Assembly (NCBI GenBank): GCA_964469265.1
Contig: CAYXYF010000004.1
Coordinates: 35,958-99,957 of the forward strand
Origin: an uncultured Bdellovibrionales bacterium
GTDB taxonomy: Bacteria; Bdellovibrionota; Bdellovibrionia; Bdellovibrionales; JAEYZS01
DNA length: 64,000 nt
Reading direction: 5' to 3'
The notes below the pieces were generated by a model. The model made no database searches. It was not told the DNA's origin and saw only the letters and a program-made list of their open reading frames with translations. Of this stretch, positions 1-64,000 are shown piece by piece; positions within the stretch are counted from its first letter, which is position 1; every line of letters starts with the position of its first letter. A program made the position numbers and the translations under genes.

Positions 1-446
1 GCTTTGGCTTTGTCTTGAGTGTTTTTTGAAAGAGAAAACTTTTTATGGTCAAGTTCAGAAGAAAAAACCACTGCTTTTTTTATCCACTCCGCCGATTGTG
101 CGGAGTCTAGCTCGGAGAGCCGCAAGTAAGATAGATAAATCACTTCTCTCTGGGTGAGATTCCATTCATCAATGTCTGCCATTGCGACAACTTTCTCATA
201 ATACTGGCGGGCAAGACTAAAAGATTTTACAAAGAAATACTTTTGAGCGTTTTCAAACCCTTTTAGAAGTTGATCGACATTATTGCTTTTAGGATGTTTT
301 GACAGATAGTAGTTTGAAAAAAATGTGGCGTCGGAATTTTGTATATGCTGTATTTTTGCAAGCGGGGAGAGAAGCATAACAGTGTCTTGCGCAATAGATT
401 GAGTGGCGTAGAAAAATAAGATGAGCGTGGTTAAACATTTTTTCAT
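1..446 (-). CDS. Exported hypothetical protein, N-terminal part only (gene runs off the left edge); last visible gene of the Tad/Flp cluster
   Basis: Absent from the ORF track because it is truncated. Hand translation of the minus strand from the ATG at 446-444 gives MKKCLTTLILFFYATQSIAQDTVMLLSPLAKIQ... and stays open to base 1. The N-terminus looks like a signal peptide. Its ATG overlaps the TGA of the upstream cpaB-like gene (ATGA, 443-446). Confidence 0.6.
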   Translation of the reverse strand, partial: MKKCLTTLILFFYATQSIAQDTVMLLSPLAKIQHIQNSDATFFSNYYLSKHPKSNNVDQLLKGFENAQKYFFVKSFSLARQYYEKVVAMADIDEWNLTQREVIYLSYLRLSELDSAQSAEWIKKAVVFSSELDHKKFSLSKNTQDKAK

Positions 447-916
447 AAATTGGTCTCCATAATAATTTGACGGCGATTTGTCGGCTTAGGAACTGTCCCC
501 GAAGTTGTTTCGGGGTTGAGTACTGTCACAAAAAAAGCGCCTGGGTGCTGTGCTATTCGCGAAGCGCTTTCTTCAGAAACCAATACTGCGAAAACATCTG
601 GGTTTAATGGCGCTCGCATGAGCTTGACTGCTGAAGCCACCTTTCGAGGACGCGCGGATTCAAAGCTTGGAAGATAAAGATCGACGACCCCAAAATCACT
701 GATGATATTTTTAAGCGCTTCAATATTCTGAATGTCGATAGGAATTAAAGCCATACCTTGCGGTATAAGTGTGTCCACACTTGTGGGATCAATATCGTCA
801 TGGGTCCTATTGTCCTCTGAAAACAGAATCACGAAACCCAGAATGACGAAGATAATAACAAGATACTTGAAGTTCAGTTTGAGTATAAAGGTTTTTAAAT
901 TCTGTTTGAAGTCCAT
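443..916 (-). CDS. Flp pilus assembly protein CpaB/RcpC-like (short form)
   Basis: 157 aa. An N-terminal TM helix (YLVIIFVILGFVILF) is followed by IPQGMALIPIDI...VVDLYL...AVLVSEESASRIA, the pattern of the CpaB/RcpC C-terminal region. It lies downstream of flp and the pseudopilin genes. It is shorter than typical CpaB. Confidence 0.5.
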   Translation of the reverse strand: MDFKQNLKTFILKLNFKYLVIIFVILGFVILFSEDNRTHDDIDPTSVDTLIPQGMALIPIDIQNIEALKNIISDFGVVDLYLPSFESARPRKVASAVKLMRAPLNPDVFAVLVSEESASRIAQHPGAFFVTVLNPETTSGTVPKPTNRRQIIMETNL

Positions 917-917
917 C

Positions 918-1094
918 TCAACGTCCTTTGCTGTTTTTAAATTCTGTCAGATCAGAGAGTTGGTTCTTCGTATTATGGTCTCTTAGCCTTGTTGATCTGC
1001 TAAAATCAAGGATGGAGATAAAAAGAATAACCAACACAAATAGCGATAACGCACATTCAATTAAAATCTGGCCATGCGAAGCTTTGGATCCCAT
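918..1094 (-). CDS. Small TadE/pseudopilin-like protein
   Basis: Start moved to the internal Met of ORF 918..1127, giving MGSKASHG/QILIECALSLFVLVILF. It has a short leader, a Gly-Gln junction, Glu at +5 and a hydrophobic helix, the same prepilin-type N-terminus as flp in this cluster. Confidence 0.45.
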   Translation of the reverse strand: MGSKASHGQILIECALSLFVLVILFISILDFSRSTRLRDHNTKNQLSDLTEFKNSKGR

Positions 1095-1735
1095 GAATCT
1101 CCTTTCGCAACAAGAGTTGCAGCACATCTTCCTTTTATAGTTTTTGAACCGTTCAGATAGGAAAGAAGTGGGTTGGCAATGACGTGTTGAAGTTTTAAAG
1201 TCCAGCGCACACTAATGAGCTGTCGCTGTTCAAAGTGAGCCACAGGGTAAAAGCTCGGAGCAACAGCGTGTGGAGGTTTTTTTTGAACTTCGAATACAAT
1301 CGGAGTTGTTCTTACAGTTACCTTTGCACCCAACTGTCCGCGCAGTTTTTGAATTAAATTTCGAGCGCGAAATTTTGCTGTGCGAATGAGTAACTCTTGT
1401 CTTCCGCGCAGGACGGACTGTCTGAAATGATTTACTTTTATTAATTTAATAATTGGAACAGCCGCTGGAGTACCTGCCACGGGAACAAGGGCGGCTTTTA
1501 ATCTGCGTTCTTCGGCTCGAAGGGAGCTTGCGTTGTTATTCAGCCCAATGAGTTTTTGCAAACTTAAGCCTATGGTTTTTTGAGCCAAAAGGACTTGGCT
1601 CCGGCAAAGCTTTTGAGTTTTTGAGTAGTAATCGATGAGTTGATAGCTTGTAAATATAAGCATAGCGAACATGACGAGGGGGAGAAGAATCAGGACAAGG
1701 TTTAAAGATGTTATGCCACTTTGTGTATGTATCAT
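1061..1735 (-). CDS. Tad pilus assembly membrane protein (TadF/TadG-like), family uncertain
   Basis: 224 aa with one N-terminal hydrophobic helix (LNLVLILLPLVMFAMLIF). Its ATG overlaps the TGA of the upstream tadE-like gene (ATGA at 1732-1735). The call rests on context within the pilin gene run; I recognise no specific motif. Confidence 0.35.
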   Translation of the reverse strand: MIHTQSGITSLNLVLILLPLVMFAMLIFTSYQLIDYYSKTQKLCRSQVLLAQKTIGLSLQKLIGLNNNASSLRAEERRLKAALVPVAGTPAAVPIIKLIKVNHFRQSVLRGRQELLIRTAKFRARNLIQKLRGQLGAKVTVRTTPIVFEVQKKPPHAVAPSFYPVAHFEQRQLISVRWTLKLQHVIANPLLSYLNGSKTIKGRCAATLVAKGDSWDPKLRMARF

Positions 1736-2073
1736 TGGCGCAGTTCCTTACGGTAAGAAAACTTCTGCGGACCAATAAACGGCGGTGCGATGGCCATTTT
1801 TAAGGTGGCGGAGTTAATACGTCTTTTCGATTGCAATGAAACTTTAAATGCCGATTTTAAAAAAAGTGTGTACCGAATTTGTGCAGTCGCTTTTCTTTCA
1901 CATCGGGATAGACTTCCAGTCTCCTGATGGCAAATCAGAGCCTCATACAAAATGTGATCTATCCAAAACGTTGCATAGATAAGGTAAAGAGCTACGCAGA
2001 TCACACTGACCACCGTACAGACAGCCGTGATAGAAACAGCGGCTTCAATGGAAGATTGACCACGGCTATTCAT
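1732..2073 (-). CDS. TadE-like pseudopilin
   Basis: Start moved to Met42 of ORF 1732..2196 (cat at 2071-2073), giving MNSRG/QSSIEAAVSITAVCTVVSVICVALYLI. This is the G/Q-x-x-I-E prepilin-like N-terminus typical of TadE-family proteins. It overlaps the flp 3' end by 8 nt. Confidence 0.55.
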   Translation of the reverse strand: MNSRGQSSIEAAVSITAVCTVVSVICVALYLIYATFWIDHILYEALICHQETGSLSRCERKATAQIRYTLFLKSAFKVSLQSKRRINSATLKMAIAPPFIGPQKFSYRKELRQ

Positions 2074-2323
2074 CGGAGTTCTGATTTTTTCGGTTCGCAG
2101 ATCCGCGGAAAAAGTCTGACATATCTTTTTTGCGGTAATAAGACTTTCGAACCTCTTCCATTGGTGCTTTGGTCGCACTTTTACCCTGAATAGCATTGGC
2201 TACCGTAGCAAATTGGGCATGGATGTTTTGCCCAACAACTTTCATAACTGCTATGCCTGCGATTGCAACTAGCGCGACAATGATAAGGTACTCGATGAGC
2301 CCCTGGCCTCGTTCATTTCTCAT
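2066..2323 (-). CDS. flp: Flp-family type IVb pilin
   Basis: MRNERG/QGLIEYLIIVALVAIAGIAV carries the Flp motif G/XXXXEY followed by a hydrophobic helix. An RBS (AGGGAGA) precedes the ATG. The C-terminal tail is unusually long and charged. Confidence 0.8.
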   Translation of the reverse strand: MRNERGQGLIEYLIIVALVAIAGIAVMKVVGQNIHAQFATVANAIQGKSATKAPMEEVRKSYYRKKDMSDFFRGSANRKNQNSDE

Positions 2324-56229: not shown

Positions 56230-56359
56230 CCTATTAACTCTTAGGTCTCCCTTTGAAACATATCTGGACTGAAGTTTAGCTCAAGTTGAGACGGTTCTGG
56301 TCCGATAAGAGAGATATATCAGATTTCATCGGGGGATGAAAAGACTTTTGGGGGGATGA

Positions 56360-56908
56360 ATGTCTAAATCAAATGTTATTGATTTAAAGTCATATTTAAA
56401 GGGATCAGGTCGAAAAACAGGTAAATTATTAAAGATTTCTACGAATGCAGAGCCTGCTTCCGTGATTGATTTAGCTCAAAAGAAAGAAGAAATTCTATCT
56501 TTAGAAAGACGGGAAAAAAAGAGGACTATCCTTACAGAGTTTGTAGGTGCCTTTATTGTTATACCGAACTCAGGTTTAAGCCTTGGCGGCTTACATAAAG
56601 TCAGTCTTTATGACATTTCATCAAACGGTGTATCCTTTGATAGCGAAACAAAAATAGGCTCGTTACGCACGGGTGATGAAATCGCGATGCGAATCTATTT
56701 GTCACAAAAAAGTTACTTTCCATTTGTGGTTAAGATTGCTAATAGCAGATATATCCGCGACGAAGAAACATTCCGCTATGGTTGCGAGTTTGTAAAAACG
56801 ACGGTGAATAAAGAGGCGCTTAGCCACTTCGTGAAGTTTATTGAGTCAGTTGCCATTGATATGAAGATTGATACGGGCGACCTTCTGACGCATTCCTCGA
56901 AAAAATAA
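56360..56908 (+). CDS. PilZ-domain c-di-GMP receptor
   Basis: RxxxR motif (RREKKR) and D-x-S-x-x-G motif (DISSNG) at the canonical spacing. Confidence 0.75.
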   Translation: MSKSNVIDLKSYLKGSGRKTGKLLKISTNAEPASVIDLAQKKEEILSLERREKKRTILTEFVGAFIVIPNSGLSLGGLHKVSLYDISSNGVSFDSETKIGSLRTGDEIAMRIYLSQKSYFPFVVKIANSRYIRDEETFRYGCEFVKTTVNKEALSHFVKFIESVAIDMKIDTGDLLTHSSKK

Positions 56909-58321: not shown

Positions 58322-58774
58322 TTATATAAAGACCTCAGCTGATACGTTGAACTTTTTCGCCAAAGCTTTTATTTGGCGTAAGTTCAGTTCGCGTTCTCCT
58401 TTTAAAACCTTTGATACGACCGATTGGCCCCCAAATATCTGAGCTAGGTCAGATTGCTTTAACCCTTGAAGCTCCATAAGATAAGAAAGCATGTCTGTGC
58501 CACTTACAGGCGCATCTTTAAAACGCCGCCTTTCATAGTCACTAACTAAATCTGCTAAAGTTTTTAAGTAAAGGGATGCCCCTTCGTCTCTGATTGTCTC
58601 ATTGTAAGTTATTATTTTCTCAATTATCATAAGAGCTAACTCATGCTCTTCTTTGGAAGCAATGGGCTTAAGAGGAAAAAATTCGACAAGCTTAATATAG
58701 GTTGGGCCCACCTTAACTTTTTTTACCCTAGACTCTTCTTTTAAACTATCTATAAGCTTTTTTGCAATACCCAT
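58322..58774 (-). CDS. higA: HigA-type antitoxin (HTH-XRE with N-terminal extension)
   Basis: C-terminal HTH LKQSDLAQIFGGQSVVSKVLKGERELNLRQIKALAKKF. Start set at MGIAKK (RBS GGAAGGA), 2 nt after the higB stop. Confidence 0.75.
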   Translation of the reverse strand: MGIAKKLIDSLKEESRVKKVKVGPTYIKLVEFFPLKPIASKEEHELALMIIEKIITYNETIRDEGASLYLKTLADLVSDYERRRFKDAPVSGTDMLSYLMELQGLKQSDLAQIFGGQSVVSKVLKGERELNLRQIKALAKKFNVSAEVFI

Positions 58775-58776
58775 AG

Positions 58777-59067
58777 CTATTCCTTCCATTTGTTTTTATC
58801 GTACTCTTTATGAGTTAAAACGTGAGTAACGAGAATGATTTGTATGCCATATGATATCTTTGTTATGGTCCGAATCTTATTTCCACCAATATCAAAGACG
58901 ACTTGGTGGCCGACAAAGTCAACGTTGGCTCCAAATACCTTTTTCAAGTCCTGGGGCCTATTAAAACTCGTTCCCTCCATAAGCTTGACCCATCTATCCA
59001 GAGCCTTTCGACCTAAAGAGTGTCTTTTTTTAAATTCATCAATGATGTTTTTACCTAAAAGCTGCAC
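58777..59067 (-). CDS. higB: HigB-type toxin (mRNA interferase, HigB_toxin family)
   Basis: 96 aa. ...FKKRHSLGRKALDRWVKLM...FDIGGNKIRTITKISY...ILVTHVLTHKEYDK matches the HigB (COG4680) pattern. Toxin-first order. GTG start. Confidence 0.75.
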   Translation of the reverse strand: MQLLGKNIIDEFKKRHSLGRKALDRWVKLMEGTSFNRPQDLKKVFGANVDFVGHQVVFDIGGNKIRTITKISYGIQIILVTHVLTHKEYDKNKWKE

Positions 59068-59134: not shown

Positions 59135-59362
59135 TTAAGGTTGTTTGAGTCTGTTTTTGTTTTTGTAGAAACGCTCGTTGAGAGCGTCGGAGACTTGATC
59201 GAGCCATTCATGGGTGCTTTCGCAATAAGGGTCGTTTTCAAACTTTTCGAAGGTTGCAATAAACTCACTAAAGAGTTGGTCATAACCCAAGCTATAAAGC
59301 CACGTTTGGTCTTTCTTCTGCGCTTTTAATCTGTAAGTTTGAAGGTCTATTACGTTCATCAC
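59135..59362 (-). CDS. Small hypothetical protein
   Basis: 75 aa, hydrophilic, with balanced composition. Preferred over the overlapping plus-strand ORF 59093..59329, whose product is implausibly hydrophobic and Phe/Val-rich. No family recognised. Confidence 0.4.
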   Translation of the reverse strand: MMNVIDLQTYRLKAQKKDQTWLYSLGYDQLFSEFIATFEKFENDPYCESTHEWLDQVSDALNERFYKNKNRLKQP

Positions 59363-59632
59363 TCATAAACAAAGCAAGTCTTGTGCCTAAAGCTTCATAG
59401 TTTCTTCGGGTCAAAAACTAGGTTGGCATACTTTTTAAGGATGTTTTTCAGAGGCTCATTTTTCATGCCAGATTTCGCGCCAAGCCCCCTCAGTAATTAA
59501 TTCAATAGCGTCTAAAATAATCACATCACTGCTGCCAAAAGGAAGGCCGTACTTTGGTCTGGTTTCTAGAAGGGGGCGTCAAGAAGTGGAAGCTCTTTGC
59601 CGATCTAACTATGAGATAAAAGGAGACTTCAA

Positions 59633-59911
59633 ATGTTCTTACAAGGAAATCTGCAAGCGGTTTTTGATGCTCTTTATACGTTAGGTGTAATTGATCCAGT
59701 TTTGGAGAAAGACTGGAAGCAATCCTTTGAGGAGTTTCCTGCCCATGAAACGCAAGTTCAACAGGCGGTGGCTAAGGTCAATATGTGCCAAGGAGATATC
59801 ACAAGAATTGTTAGCTCATTGAAGGCCTTTGATATGAAAACTTTGGAATTTGTTGCGATGGAAGTTGCAAGAGAGTTTGCAGACTTTTACGCAAGAAAGG
59901 TGACTCATTAA
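59633..59911 (+). CDS. Small cytosolic hypothetical protein (first gene of the CpaF-like operon)
   Basis: 92 aa with a strong RBS AAAGGAGA. No signal peptide. No family recognised. Confidence 0.55.
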   Translation: MFLQGNLQAVFDALYTLGVIDPVLEKDWKQSFEEFPAHETQVQQAVAKVNMCQGDITRIVSSLKAFDMKTLEFVAMEVAREFADFYARKVTH

Positions 59912-59912
59912 T

Positions 59913-60386
59913 ATGGTAAAAATATTTGCAGTCATCGCAATGACAATTTTTTTGGCAAAGAGCGTTTTTGCATTCGAGATTGATTTTTCCCGAAGAACGC
60001 AACACCTTAAAGAACCGACAGTTGTTCTTCCACAAAAAAGTACGCCAGATTTAGTTTCTTTATCTCATGTCACAGAAAACTTTGCAGCATCACAAGATAT
60101 CGTGATCTTAAATACTTCAAATGGGTTTATCCCAAAGTCTTTGAGTTTAAAAGAGGGTACTAAATATAAAATTCACGTTGTGAATGTTAATGAGAAAGAA
60201 AAAAACGTTAGCTTTATTATGAGTGCGTTTGCTCAGCATCATGGAACATACTACGGCCAAATTAAAACATTTGAAATTACTCCGACAAAAGAGGGTGTCT
60301 ACACATACCAGTGTCCCGAGACAGCTTTAGAGGGGCGAGTTGTGGTGCTTCCGCATAACGATCGCGCTCTGGCTAGTGAAAAATAA
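59913..60386 (+). CDS. Exported cupredoxin-like protein (Cupredoxin_1/EfeO-N type), copper ligands incomplete
   Basis: Signal peptide IFAVIAMTIFLAKSVFA. C-terminal EGTKYKIHVVNVN...KTFEITPTKEGVYTYQCPETALEGRVVVL follows the cupredoxin pattern. The Cys is kept, but the His and Met expected after it are absent. Confidence 0.5.
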   Translation: MVKIFAVIAMTIFLAKSVFAFEIDFSRRTQHLKEPTVVLPQKSTPDLVSLSHVTENFAASQDIVILNTSNGFIPKSLSLKEGTKYKIHVVNVNEKEKNVSFIMSAFAQHHGTYYGQIKTFEITPTKEGVYTYQCPETALEGRVVVLPHNDRALASEK

Positions 60387-60409
60387 TTTTTACTCATAGG
60401 AAAAACGGG

Positions 60410-61513
60410 ATGGATTCTAAGGTTGATGTTTTCAAAAATGCTATACGCAATTTCTTAGGTCCCATTGACCATTTTCTCGATGACCCAACTATTACTGAAA
60501 TTCTAATTAATGGCCCCAGTGAAATTTTTATTGAGCAGAATGGTAAGCTCTCAAAAACAGATGCTTCTTTTCCAGATGAAGAAGCGCTTCAGGCCGCAGT
60601 GAACAGTATCGCTCAAAGTGTTGGCCGCAGAATTTCTAAAAAAGAACCAACCCTTGATGCAAGACTTCCCGATGGATCAAGAATTCATGCCGTTCTGCCT
60701 CCTGTCGCAAGAAGTGGAACAACGGTAAGTATTCGTAAATTCACGCAAGCAAAAATCACTTTAAAAGAATGTGTTGAAAACGGAACAATGACCGCCGATG
60801 CAGCTCAGTTTCTTGATCTGTGTATGTTCCTCGGAAAAAACATTCTGGTCAGTGGCGGAACAGGTTCTGGTAAAACCACACTGTTGAGTGTGTTGGCCTC
60901 ACGAATCCCTAAGGGGCAACGAGTGATCGTCATTGAGGACTCATCTGAGCTTCAAATTGAGTATGAACATCTAGTGTTTTTTGAGACACAGTTGTCAGAC
61001 ACCCAAGGTGAGGGTGAAGTGAGTATGAAGGATCTTGTTAAAAGTAGCCTTCGTTTAAGACCTGATCGAATTATCGTAGGTGAAGTTCGAAGTGAAGAAG
61101 CTTTAGATTTAGTCAACGCAATGAATACTGGTCACAAGGGTTGCCTTGGAACAATTCACGCCAATACCCCAGAAGATGCCATGGTTCGTTTAGAGGGTCT
61201 TGCAATGGGGGGAGACACTAAAATTTCAGAACGGGCACTTCAGCATTTGATTGGAGCTGCGGTGGATATTATCGTCCAGATTTCACGGTTCTCCGACGGG
61301 AGCAGGCGCGTTAACAATATCTCTGAAGTCGGGGGCCACGATGGTTCAAAGTATCTTGTGGAGCCCATATTTGAATTGGGGCAGCTTAAAAAATCAGCAG
61401 ATGGACGCCTTGTGGGTCGCTTAGAGGCTGTAGGCCGCGTTCCATCTTTTATGGATGAAATTGAAGCCAATCGTATCCCTTTTTCCAGAGCTAAATTTAA
61501 CAAAGCCGCGTGA
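60410..61513 (+). CDS. cpaF: CpaF/VirB11-family type II/IV secretion ATPase, minimal form
   Basis: Walker A GGTGSGKTT, Asp box VIVIEDSSEL, Walker B PDRIIVGEVR, His box GHKGCLGTIHAN. Only about 25 aa precede the ITEILINGP N-domain. Confidence 0.85.
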   Translation: MDSKVDVFKNAIRNFLGPIDHFLDDPTITEILINGPSEIFIEQNGKLSKTDASFPDEEALQAAVNSIAQSVGRRISKKEPTLDARLPDGSRIHAVLPPVARSGTTVSIRKFTQAKITLKECVENGTMTADAAQFLDLCMFLGKNILVSGGTGSGKTTLLSVLASRIPKGQRVIVIEDSSELQIEYEHLVFFETQLSDTQGEGEVSMKDLVKSSLRLRPDRIIVGEVRSEEALDLVNAMNTGHKGCLGTIHANTPEDAMVRLEGLAMGGDTKISERALQHLIGAAVDIIVQISRFSDGSRRVNNISEVGGHDGSKYLVEPIFELGQLKKSADGRLVGRLEAVGRVPSFMDEIEANRIPFSRAKFNKAA

Positions 61514-61555
61514 TTTACTTGCATCGCATAAGCCCTGACTGATAGAAACAGCAGC

Positions 61556-63049
61556 GTGCTTTTTAGTAGTAAAATCTCCAACTCAGTTCTGACTTTTTTA
61601 GAGAACCAACGGGTCACGTTGGAGGGCCTCTACTCGTCCTTTGATATTCCAGAAGAGCTTTTGCGCGACCCTTCCTCTTGGATGGAAGCACGAGAAATGG
61701 AAAACTTTTTAAGTGCGGCCTCAAATCATTTTTCGGCAGAACGGCAAAATCAAAAAAGCTCAGGCGAGAGTCTTGCTGAACTTGTTGGCCATGACTGTTT
61801 AAACCTTCACTCGTGGGGAGTTCTGGATAGCGTTTTACGGATGATGGACAAACCTCAAGATATTTATCTTCATCCTGAGCGCTTTTTATCATACTTTATT
61901 TCTCCAACACCTCCATTACTTAAATTAGACTCTCAGGCTGAATCCAGCTTGGAAAAATGCTCCTTTGAAATTTCGATTTCAAGTTTTGATTATCCGTTAA
62001 CAACAAAATATTTGCAGACAGCCCTTGAAGCTCTTCCGACATTTTTTGGACGCGAAAATGCTCAGGTACACTGGATCGGGAAAATTGTAGATATTAACTG
62101 GGAAACAAAGCAAGACTCGCTTTTTGAAACAAACGAGCTTGAAAGAAACATTAAGCCTGATCTTGTTGATACCTTAATGACTTCTCTGGAGAAAAAACAA
62201 CGAGAACTTGAAATAAAAAACCGTGAGTTAATTGAAAAAAACAAACTCCTAGAAGAAGCTCAGCGCAAACTTGAAAGCCAATACCGCGAAAGAGTTTTTT
62301 CAGAAAAGTTATCAACGCTTTCGGAGCTTGCCTCAAGTATTGCCCATGAAATCAATAATCCGTTAGCGTATGTGATGAGCAACATGATGCGAATTAATGA
62401 TTATTTTATTCGTGCACAACAACTTATCACAATACTGATTGGGCAAGATCGTCTTAATCCTGCGGTTCAAGAAGCCATGAGAAGGATGGATTGGAATATC
62501 GTACAAAAAGATTTTCCAGAAGTCGTCCAAGAGGTTCATGACGGACTTCAGAAGGTGCGAGGAATAGTGAAAGATCTTTCCTTTATCACAGGTAAAAACT
62601 CTGATGATGAAAGAGTTCGAGCGGATTTAAATGAAGTCGTGGGATCAGCAGTAAAAATGGTGAAGCATCAAGTGCCGCAAGACGTGAGCATTGATAGTCA
62701 TTTATTGTTAAACCAAGCAATACCGATTTATCCGCTGCGCTTAGAGCAAGCTTTAGTTAATATTTTAAATAACGCTGTTCAAGCGATTGACGGTAAGGGA
62801 ACTGTTCGTGTTGTCACTCGACCAAAGGGCGAACGCGCAGAGATAGAAATTTCAGATACAGGACGGGGAATGGACGAAGAAAAACTTAAGTCCATCTTTA
62901 AACCCTTTTACACGACAAAGCAGCCTGGGAAAGGTACGGGCCTCGGATTAAGTATTGCCCATTCTATAGTTGAAATGCATTCTGGGGGTATTAAAGTAAC
63001 GAGCGAGCCTGGAAGAGGTTCTACATTTTCAATTGACCTACCACTTTAG
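61556..63049 (+). CDS. Soluble sensor histidine kinase with an uncharacterised N-terminal sensor region
   Basis: H-box SIAHEINNPLAYV, N-box NILNNAVQA, and G-boxes DTGRGM and GTGLGLSIA. No TM helices seen. A coiled-coil linker is present. GTG start. Confidence 0.8.
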   Translation: MLFSSKISNSVLTFLENQRVTLEGLYSSFDIPEELLRDPSSWMEAREMENFLSAASNHFSAERQNQKSSGESLAELVGHDCLNLHSWGVLDSVLRMMDKPQDIYLHPERFLSYFISPTPPLLKLDSQAESSLEKCSFEISISSFDYPLTTKYLQTALEALPTFFGRENAQVHWIGKIVDINWETKQDSLFETNELERNIKPDLVDTLMTSLEKKQRELEIKNRELIEKNKLLEEAQRKLESQYRERVFSEKLSTLSELASSIAHEINNPLAYVMSNMMRINDYFIRAQQLITILIGQDRLNPAVQEAMRRMDWNIVQKDFPEVVQEVHDGLQKVRGIVKDLSFITGKNSDDERVRADLNEVVGSAVKMVKHQVPQDVSIDSHLLLNQAIPIYPLRLEQALVNILNNAVQAIDGKGTVRVVTRPKGERAEIEISDTGRGMDEEKLKSIFKPFYTTKQPGKGTGLGLSIAHSIVEMHSGGIKVTSEPGRGSTFSIDLPL

Positions 63050-63066: not shown

Positions 63067-64000
63067 ATGTCAGAAATTATCGATGTCAGAGCACGAGAAG
63101 TTTTAGATAGCAGAGGAAACCCTACAGTTGAAGTTGAAGTTATTGGAGCAACTGGTTTTTCTGCCTACGCAGCAGTACCATCAGGTGCATCAACTGGTGC
63201 GCATGAGGCTTGTGAGCTCAGAGACAACGATAAAAAAAGATATCATGGTAAAGGTGTGCTCCAAGCAGTAGAAAATGTTGAAGGAGCCATCGCAGAAAAG
63301 ATTATTGGCCTAGATTGCTTGAAGCAAAGAGAGATAGATCAAATTCTTTTACATGCTGATGGATCAGAGAACAAATCAAATCTTGGTGCTAACGCACTAC
63401 TTGGTGTATCACTTGCCTGCACAAAACTTTCTGCCCTAGAGCTTGGTATTCCTGTTTACGAATATGTCGGCGGAGCACTTGCAAATACATTACCAGTCCC
63501 ATTGATGAACATCTTAAACGGAGGCGCACACGCGAATAACGGACTTGATGTGCAAGAGTTTATGATCGCACCAGTGCTCGGCGGTAAATTTTCGGAATCT
63601 TTAAGATGTGGTTCTGAAATCTTTCATACACTTAAAAAAATTCTTAATGACAAGGGCCTCAGTACTGCGGTGGGTGACGAGGGTGGCTTTGCTCCAGCGT
63701 TGAAGAATAACCGAGAAGCCTTGGAGCTTATTGCAGATGCTGTTGAAAAATCAGGATACCGTCTTGGTGAAGACTTATACTTTGCACTCGATGTTGCAGC
63801 CACAGAGCTTTACAAAGATGGAAAGTACATTTGGGAAGGAAAGGCCATCACTTCTGATGAGCTGATCTCTATTTATGAAGAGTGGAGTAAAACATTCCCG
63901 ATTAAATCTATAGAAGATGGCTTAGGAGAAGATGATTGGAAGTCTTGGGCTTCTATCACTGATCGACTGGGCGATAAAATTCAACTCGTAGGTGATGATC
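63067..64000 (+). CDS. eno: Enolase, N-terminal about 311 codons (continues beyond the right edge)
   Basis: [25 protein letters not shown]... and [10 protein letters not shown] are canonical enolase motifs. RBS AAGGAGA. Confidence 0.93.

Follow-up and report, generated by a model that had tools for sequence, protein, structure and literature searches.

A 64,000-nucleotide stretch of contig CAYXYF010000004.1 from an uncultured Bdellovibrionales bacterium (hereafter the window) carries a compact three-gene operon encoding a cytosolic protein of 92 residues (p92), an exported cupredoxin-like protein and a minimal ATPase of the CpaF/TadA family, followed by the genes for a soluble histidine kinase and enolase (Table 1). 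We read the three genes, with a probability of roughly 0.45, as a FliA (sigma-28)-driven attack-phase operon whose ATPase would be an accessory motor of the Tad family, provided with a cytosolic adaptor and a periplasmic accessory, acting on filament machinery encoded elsewhere and needed for prey killing. Support for this reading is drawn from membership of the ATPase in the CpaF family, its invariant catalytic motifs, conservation of the trio, the FliA-type motif, published transposon sequencing (Tn-seq) and co-down-regulation with pilus genes. The initial annotation, made from the sequence alone, had proposed either a dispersed Tad motor or a repurposed ATPase with a cupredoxin-like partner and its own kinase. 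An orphan minimal CpaF-type ATPase accompanied by a small cytosolic protein and a ligand-poor exported cupredoxin was confirmed, whereas the attribution of the kinase to the ATPase was not.

In order to establish how widely the arrangement is conserved, gene order was compared across 80 distinct related genome loci found via relatives of the ATPase, and the locus counts given here refer to this set. Relatives of the ATPase number in the thousands, the closest being 62-89% identical, 366-380 residues long and derived from Bdellovibrionales, Pseudobdellovibrionaceae and Bdellovibrio. The p92 gene was present in 80/80 loci and nearly always encoded exactly 92 residues (median 92), with the ATPase gene directly next in the order of the trio. 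The cupredoxin-like gene was found in 78 loci, and all three genes occurred together in 78 of the 80, abutting or overlapping one another. Identities to orthologues ranged from 37 to 85% for p92 and from 36 to 71% for the cupredoxin-like protein, spanning 36-89% for the trio overall. The ATPase has therefore kept its neighbours across some 80 related genomes. Since the genes upstream of p92 vary by lineage while the trio is constant, this conservation represents more than frozen gene order. Furthermore, two reduced loci (L054 and L057, the latter on a 1.6-Mb chromosome) retain only PilZ, p92 and the ATPase. In both, the p92 stop codon overlaps the ATPase start and p92 is the sole partner retained beside the ATPase, identifying p92 as its closest partner. 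One complete module of the Bdellovibrio type (L039, JBLMWG010000083.1) lies on a contig labelled as a 'Bacillota bacterium' metagenome-assembled genome, probably a binning or taxonomy error.

The 120 nt upstream of p92 were scanned for the pattern T[CT]AAG-N15-17-CCGA[TA]. A match was present upstream of p92 in 71/80 loci, compared with a background of 0.0066 per 120 nt. The FliA consensus TTAAG-N16-CCGATA accounts for two-thirds of B. bacteriovorus attack-phase promoters (PMC3627812), and the B. bacteriovorus TAD operon is also FliA-driven (PMC5430801). Judged by its sequence, the motif in the window is of this attack-phase FliA promoter type. A PilZ-domain gene immediately precedes p92 in L054 and L057, and in seven further loci one lies within 3-6 kb. 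Input of cyclic di-GMP (c-di-GMP) to the ATPase via the PilZ protein is possible, with membership of PilZ in the module being uncertain.

The ATPase matched Pfam T2SSE (E=2.4e-54). The initial annotation had described intact motifs with almost nothing ahead of the N-domain, and this is in agreement with the present results. Walker A (residues 149-157), the Asp box (172-180), Walker B (219-227) and the His box (239-252) are all intact. The catalytic motifs are invariant among orthologues, with Walker A examined in 83 orthologous sequences. Residues 16-350 align to residues 148-483 of Caulobacter crescentus CpaF (phmmer against the PDB, E=5e-83, 42% identity over 306 residues), so that the protein begins about 15 residues before the equivalent of the second N-terminal domain (NTD2). 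Because the alignment is confined to CpaF 148-483, the ATPase consists of NTD2 and the C-terminal domain (CTD) only and lacks NTD0 and NTD1. In CpaF, NTD0 (residues 1-79) promotes retraction, while NTD1 is a three-helix motif whose flexible link to NTD2 is needed for function (PMC11300603). The window ATPase thus shares the NTD2 and CTD core, both Walker motifs, the Asp box and the His box with the bifunctional Tad motors C. crescentus CpaF and Aggregatibacter TadA, but differs from them in the missing N-terminal domains, in a variable Loop-8 Asp position and a central-loop Glu that is not conserved, and in the absence of co-encoded TadB/C, RcpA, TadZ and Flp. It scored 308.5 against NCBIfam TIGR03819 (TadA-type conjugal ATPase), below the cut-off of 373. 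By analogy only, it resembles PilT and PilU of type IVa pili, minimal two-domain hexameric ATPases that are encoded apart from the structural genes and share the platform they act on with a larger assembly ATPase. PilT and PilU come from a different branch of the superfamily, the match to them being limited to the P-loop region (E about 1e-11), and nothing found here points to a retraction role. Assignment to a defence system was also considered and rejected, as PADLOC models gave only weak P-loop and HATPase matches.

The 157-residue protein matched Pfam Cupredoxin_1 (E=1.5e-7, 31.8 bits, above the gathering cut-off of 27 bits). The N-termini of its orthologues are signal-peptide-like, with an AxA junction followed by W/F-E-V/I-D-x-S-R-R. 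Of 33 orthologues, at least 90% carry His110 and Cys134; the conserved positions comprise His110, Cys134-Pro-Glu-Thr and a C-terminal R-x-P-A-S. The type-1 copper set His...Cys-x(n)-His-x(n)-Met is incomplete, with no His or Met after Cys134. A signal peptide and a cupredoxin-like C-terminus with a Cys but without the downstream His and Met had been noted at the outset, and the Pfam match, the AxA junction and the orthologue alignment corroborate this description. Profile matches included Streptococcus pneumoniae CupA (the best solved structure, E=2.5e-4), nitrosocyanin and amicyanin. Cys134 aligns with the Cys of the C-G-M-N-M stretch of CupA, a copper chaperone, but this family has other residues in place of the upstream Cys and both Met of that stretch, those of the window protein being N98, Glu136 and Ala138. 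The Cu(I) ligands of CupA are C74, C111, M113 and M115. Moreover, the window protein has a cleavable-type signal peptide in place of the CupA membrane anchor, and is therefore probably periplasmic. A cupredoxin domain tethered in the cytoplasm in the manner of CupA was considered and rejected, since polar residues occur in the short hydrophobic stretch and the conserved AxA junction is consistent with signal-peptide cleavage. These sequence features favour reading the protein as a cupredoxin fold that is periplasmic and poor in ligands.

For p92, structure prediction with AlphaFold2 (AF2) returned a model of six helices with a predicted local distance difference test (pLDDT) of 78, and 24 of its 92 residues are invariant among orthologues. 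No match was found in Pfam, NCBIfam, PDB sequences or Foldseek. An exhaustive hidden Markov model (HMM) search of 1.84 billion representatives yielded 56 clusters, nearly all of 43-133 residues and none with the length of an ATPase fusion. An origin of p92 as a split-off CpaF N-terminal domain found no support, with no PDB sequence or fold match and no match of fusion length, Foldseek being weak for short helical queries. The names 'cytochrome' (RefSeq and UniRef) and 'cytochrome P450-like' (HD100) carried by p92 orthologues are probably a propagated mis-annotation, because p92 has neither CxxCH nor another heme motif and no match to a cytochrome family. The p92 profile weakly matched repeats in P0450 (3150 residues), P0452 (5008 residues) and P0454 (404 residues, six helicase-associated (HA) domains; E=2.6e-4). 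Kinship with the HA domain was rejected as a weak, repeat-driven match, and HA was absent among the 25 most widely matched of the 63 Pfam families hit by p92 members. These HA-repeat and giant-protein matches, probably spurious, are the only outside lead on the p92 fold.

According to the initial annotation, the gene combination matched no nameable system, but a published counterpart exists in the B. bacteriovorus 'tadA3 locus'. The window genes were mapped by gene order and annotation as orthologues of HD100 Bd0791, Bd0792 and Bd0793 plus the next gene. The tags of the three genes in strain 109J are consecutive (EP01_RS17850, EP01_RS17855 and EP01_RS17860), and the mapping agrees with the RefSeq 'cytochrome' naming of p92 orthologues and with consecutive accessions. 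Bd0791 is described as 'cytochrome P450-like', Bd0792 as a hypothetical protein predicted to be a cupredoxin by PHYRE, and Bd0793 as TadA/CpaF. Both loci have the order 92-residue 'cytochrome', cupredoxin-predicted hypothetical, CpaF/TadA ATPase, downstream gene (a hypothetical of about 340 residues in B. bacteriovorus) and enolase, and the ATPase is about 63-65% identical in the B. bacteriovorus loci L069 and L076-L079. They differ in that the window has a full 497-residue histidine kinase in place of the truncated pseudo-kinase, and a PilZ, PIN-PhoH and HigBA stretch upstream.

Published phenotypes of the counterpart point to a role in predation. In a Tn-seq study of 109J on planktonic Vibrio cholerae (Duncan et al., mBio 2019), fitness values for Bd0791, Bd0792 and Bd0793 were 0.08, 0.06 and 0.0017, respectively (PMC6561027). 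The single Bd0792 and Bd0793 mutants did not kill prey, of which 79% and 188%, respectively, survived, and the attachment scores of these mutants were intermediate (0.58 and 0.49, respectively; PMC6561027). Capeness et al. (PLoS One 2013) list bd0793 with the type IVb pilus genes whose expression falls in host-independent strains. In HD100, TadZA/Bd0111, the KilF orthologue, is the canonical and essential Tad motor, from which tadA3 is set apart as an isolated paralogue (Tesseur et al., bioRxiv 2026). Bd3307 is a second paralogue. With a canonical motor and a further paralogue present, the ATPase is not the sole Tad ATPase of B. bacteriovorus. The initial annotation had reasoned that its proposal would fail if the ATPase were the only CpaF of a complete Tad locus elsewhere and complemented it, with neighbours that were not conserved; in B. 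bacteriovorus it is not the only one, and the neighbours are conserved.

As we envisage it, the ATPase would form an active hexamer and, lacking its own platform, secretin and pilin, would have an accessory role, as motor or regulator, in type IV filament machinery encoded at other loci. The likeliest target would be the Tad/Kil-like system, which shares the FliA regulon. The ATPase would then be analogous to PilT and PilU in being a minimal ATPase encoded apart from the pilus genes. We infer that p92 is a dedicated cytosolic adaptor, one that may replace the missing CpaF N-terminal domains, and the cupredoxin-like protein would be a periplasmic accessory of the same process and not an electron carrier.

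Several observations weigh against this reading. Contact of the ATPase with a Tad platform is itself inferred, and the residues that might mediate it are variable. The Loop-8 Asp of CpaF (D208) is reported to be highly conserved and needed for function, and both this loop and the central one have been proposed as contacts of the CpaG/CpaH platform. Among the window ATPase and its orthologues the D208 equivalent varies (D 26, N 22, S 19, T 15; Ser76 in the window), and of the central loop E-G-S-G the G-x-G is retained while the Glu is not conserved. Taken as weak evidence, the variable platform-contact residues could hint at an altered partner. The preprint on the B. bacteriovorus Tad system (Tesseur et al., bioRxiv 2026) includes no cupredoxin-like protein in its list of components. 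In a single-mutant assay the Bd0791 transposon mutant still killed prey, with 0.04% survival (PMC6561027), and p92 may therefore not be strictly required. Finally, the fourth gene lies next to the ATPase gene on the same strand in 67/80 loci (median gap 114 nt) and only 42 nt downstream of it in the window, with no terminator predicted in that gap; co-transcription and a functional link are possible.

The same variability of the platform-contact residues would also fit a reading in which the ATPase hexamer, p92 and the cupredoxin-like protein formed or energised a predation device of their own, independent of Tad. This could be a different complex, of the envelope or for secretion, sited at the invasive pole, or else a regulatory switch driven by ATP. 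The two private partners match no described Tad component, the NTD1 that CpaF needs, flexibly linked to NTD2, is absent, and the Tad system already has its essential motor in TadZA. However, the operon encodes no membrane protein, so that a cytosolic hexamer could not reach a periplasmic partner without components encoded elsewhere, and putative FliA control and attack-phase expression are shared with the tad genes. The mutant phenotypes are also like those of pilus mutants. An autonomous device seems a possibility of the second rank, with perhaps one chance in four.

The fourth gene encodes a soluble kinase that matches HATPase_c strongly but HisKA weakly, and its kinase boxes are intact in the window: HEINNPL (containing His264), NILNNAVQA, DTGRGM and GTGLGL. 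Its lack of a transmembrane helix and its N-terminal region of about 190 residues without an assigned family had been recorded initially, and residues 1-190 indeed gave no family match. The AF2 model of residues 2-215 was confident (pLDDT 89), and each of its top 33 Foldseek matches was either an H-NOX protein or the H-NOX domain of a guanylate cyclase (best E=5.6e-5, template modelling (TM) score 0.5-0.64, probability 1.0). On this model, the N-terminal region of about 190 residues is predicted to adopt an H-NOX-like fold. At the sequence level, comparison with H-NOX gave no Pfam (HNOB), PDB-sequence, profile or hhalign match, and the 63 sequences of the kinase family have no invariant His. 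These two results make heme binding via a proximal His unlikely. Relative to the T. tengcongensis H-NOX sequence, the proximal-His position presumably corresponds to Gln101, and the Y-x-S-x-R motif is probably absent. The protein is probably a heme-free H-NOX-like sensor kinase, similar to the nitric-oxide sensing H-NOX/HnoK kinases in its predicted fold and solubility but different from them in the lack of both sequence-level similarity and an invariant His.

A kinase-to-pseudo-kinase transition has occurred within this orthologous family, as seen across the window and loci such as L003, L012 and L069, with the H-box and catalytic domain missing from most orthologues. A large Bdellovibrio/Pseudobdellovibrio clade has a form of about 340 residues from which the H-box and the whole catalytic domain have been lost. 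These forms retain the H-NOX-like domain, the coiled coil and a conserved helix-2 motif of the dimerisation and histidine phosphotransfer (DHp) domain. A full histidine kinase is found in the clade of the window and in L010, L036 and L037, while L038 has kept the catalytic domain with a degenerate H-box.

Persistence of these non-catalytic parts beyond the kinase chemistry suggests a protein-binding role, and together with the adjacency described above it lends some weight to a four-gene sensory module, in which the H-NOX-like kinase would directly control the ATPase by binding of its coiled-coil/DHp dimer or by phosphorelay. The linkage of the fourth gene argues otherwise. In the other 13/80 loci, 1-4.5 kb of unrelated, heterogeneous genes separate it from the ATPase gene, and upon rearrangement it stays with enolase, which follows it in 69/69 loci, and not with the ATPase. 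The FliA-type motif was found upstream of the fourth gene in 0/76 cases, the gene is missing from the reduced PilZ-p92-ATPase loci, and no response regulator is encoded nearby. Furthermore, the likely 109J orthologue EP01_RS17865, the next gene after Bd0793 and assigned by gene order, received no transposon insertions and is one of 201 genes listed as putatively essential for axenic growth. The ATPase trio, in contrast, is dispensable axenically and predation-specific. Neither the successor tag of EP01_RS17865 nor the word 'enolase' was found in the same list of 201 genes. Because the fourth gene is without a FliA motif, separable from the ATPase, constantly linked to enolase, stripped of its catalytic parts in most orthologues and putatively essential in B. 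bacteriovorus, it is probably a conserved neighbour coupled to enolase and not the ATPase's own kinase, and direct control of the ATPase through it is unlikely.

Novelty of a broader kind was also weighed, namely that a pilus-detached CpaF-type ATPase, a lineage-restricted p92 adaptor and a degenerate periplasmic cupredoxin constitute an undescribed FliA-controlled machine or switch required for prey killing, possibly gated by the adjacent, putatively essential H-NOX-like pseudo-kinase, by c-di-GMP through PilZ, or by both. We give this, too, perhaps one chance in four.

That the ATPase is a redundant or decaying Tad paralogue without a specific role, its gene order kept by inertia, could be argued from the rcpA2-tadA2 module, which is dispensable in B. 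bacteriovorus. It is nevertheless highly improbable, given the identity of the ATPase across the phylum, its invariant catalytic motifs, the conserved promoter motif, the strong Tn-seq fitness defects and a trio that is conserved where its upstream flank is not. Most improbable is a VirB11/TrbB-type remnant ATPase of a conjugation or type IV secretion system. Although the protein is of similar size and scored 241.3 against NCBIfam VirB11 (TIGR02788) and 243 against TrbB (TIGR02782), both values fall below the curated cut-offs (249.95 and 304.55, respectively), the CpaF match is far better than that to VirB11 (E=1e-35), no type IV secretion genes lie nearby, the GC content is unremarkable and the gene is vertically conserved and chromosomal across Bdellovibrionota.

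The four open reading frames (ORFs) were recovered exactly where the initial annotation had placed them, including the 1-nt gap between the p92 stop codon and the cupredoxin-like gene, and the strong ribosome-binding site ascribed to p92 was located as AGGAG, 8 nt upstream of its start. Its statement that no gene for a Tad platform, a secretin, a prepilin peptidase or a pilin lies next to the operon likewise stands, as none was found within about 5 kb, where PilZ, a PIN-PhoH ATPase, a HigB/HigA pair and enolase are encoded. TadB/TadC, RcpA, Flp and TadZ were found neither near the operon nor in called genes within 8-10 kb on four related contigs. An Rfam search of the 270-nt leader and the rest of the 55-64 kb region gave no regulatory RNA match at E up to 0.1, and sigma-70 promoter and terminator predictions were not above chance.

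Table 1. Features of the tadA3-type locus and its surroundings, in window coordinates.
Feature	Position	Strand	Description
Second FliA-type motif, ahead of PilZ gene	56281-56306	+	assigned by motif pattern
PilZ-domain gene	56360-56908	+	Pfam PilZ E=7.5e-8; RxxxR and DxSxxG motifs
FliA (sigma-28)-type promoter motif	59579-59605	+	TCAAG-N16-CCGATC; ends 27 nt before p92 start codon
p92 gene	59633-59911	+	92 residues; cytosolic, all-helical (predicted); Bd0791 orthologue
Cupredoxin-like exported protein gene	59913-60386	+	157 residues; signal peptide about 59913-59972; Bd0792 orthologue
Minimal CpaF/TadA-family ATPase gene	60410-61513	+	367 residues; NTD2 and CTD; Bd0793 'TadA3' orthologue
Soluble histidine kinase gene	61556-63049	+	497 residues; GTG start
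Kinase, H-NOX-like region (predicted)	61556-62125	+	residues 1-190
Kinase, coiled coil		+	follows the H-NOX-like region
Kinase, DHp	62345-62365	+	contains His264
Kinase, HATPase_c	62732-63046	+	
Enolase gene, 5' part	63067-64000	+	identified by translation; begins 17 nt past kinase stop; extends past window end

Smaller features were also recorded upstream. Between the PIN-PhoH gene and the operon, a HigB toxin and a helix-turn-helix antitoxin are encoded at 58322-59067 (-). This HigBA pair looks like a lineage-specific insertion, as the closest relative, L001, has other small genes at that place. An ORF of 75 residues at 59135-59362 (-), directed away from the operon, is conserved at 47-67% in L001 and L007-L009 and has no family match. 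At the far end of the window, the N-terminus of the ORF at 1732-2196 (-) is TadE-like (RGQSSIEAAVSITAV), and the ORFs beside it within 443-2196 (-) have N-terminal hydrophobic segments. The ORFs at 443-2196 (-) may form the last part of a Tad-type minor-pilin cluster that continues past the left edge of the window. The pilin genes that the initial annotation had placed 58 kb from the operon are thus weakly supported by this TadE-like N-terminus, with no Pfam match for any of the ORFs.

In the attachment of Bdellovibrio to its prey, and in the opening and entry of that prey, type IV filament systems have a central part. The gene set described here was already known to the field, and its third TadA paralogue has been recognised but little studied. 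This paralogue is now tied to two dedicated partners and, across the phylum, to the FliA attack-phase regulon, and the trio is linked to existing Tn-seq evidence that it is needed in prey killing. The hypotheses raised are that a second, PilT-like motor may act on the Tad platform, that p92 may replace the CpaF N-terminal domains, and that the periplasmic cupredoxin-like protein may have a role in the same process. Furthermore, a transition from kinase to pseudo-kinase is documented within the fourth-gene family, and the H-NOX-like fold predicted for this conserved 'hypothetical' protein, apparently essential in B. bacteriovorus if orthology by gene order is accepted, makes it worth study in itself.

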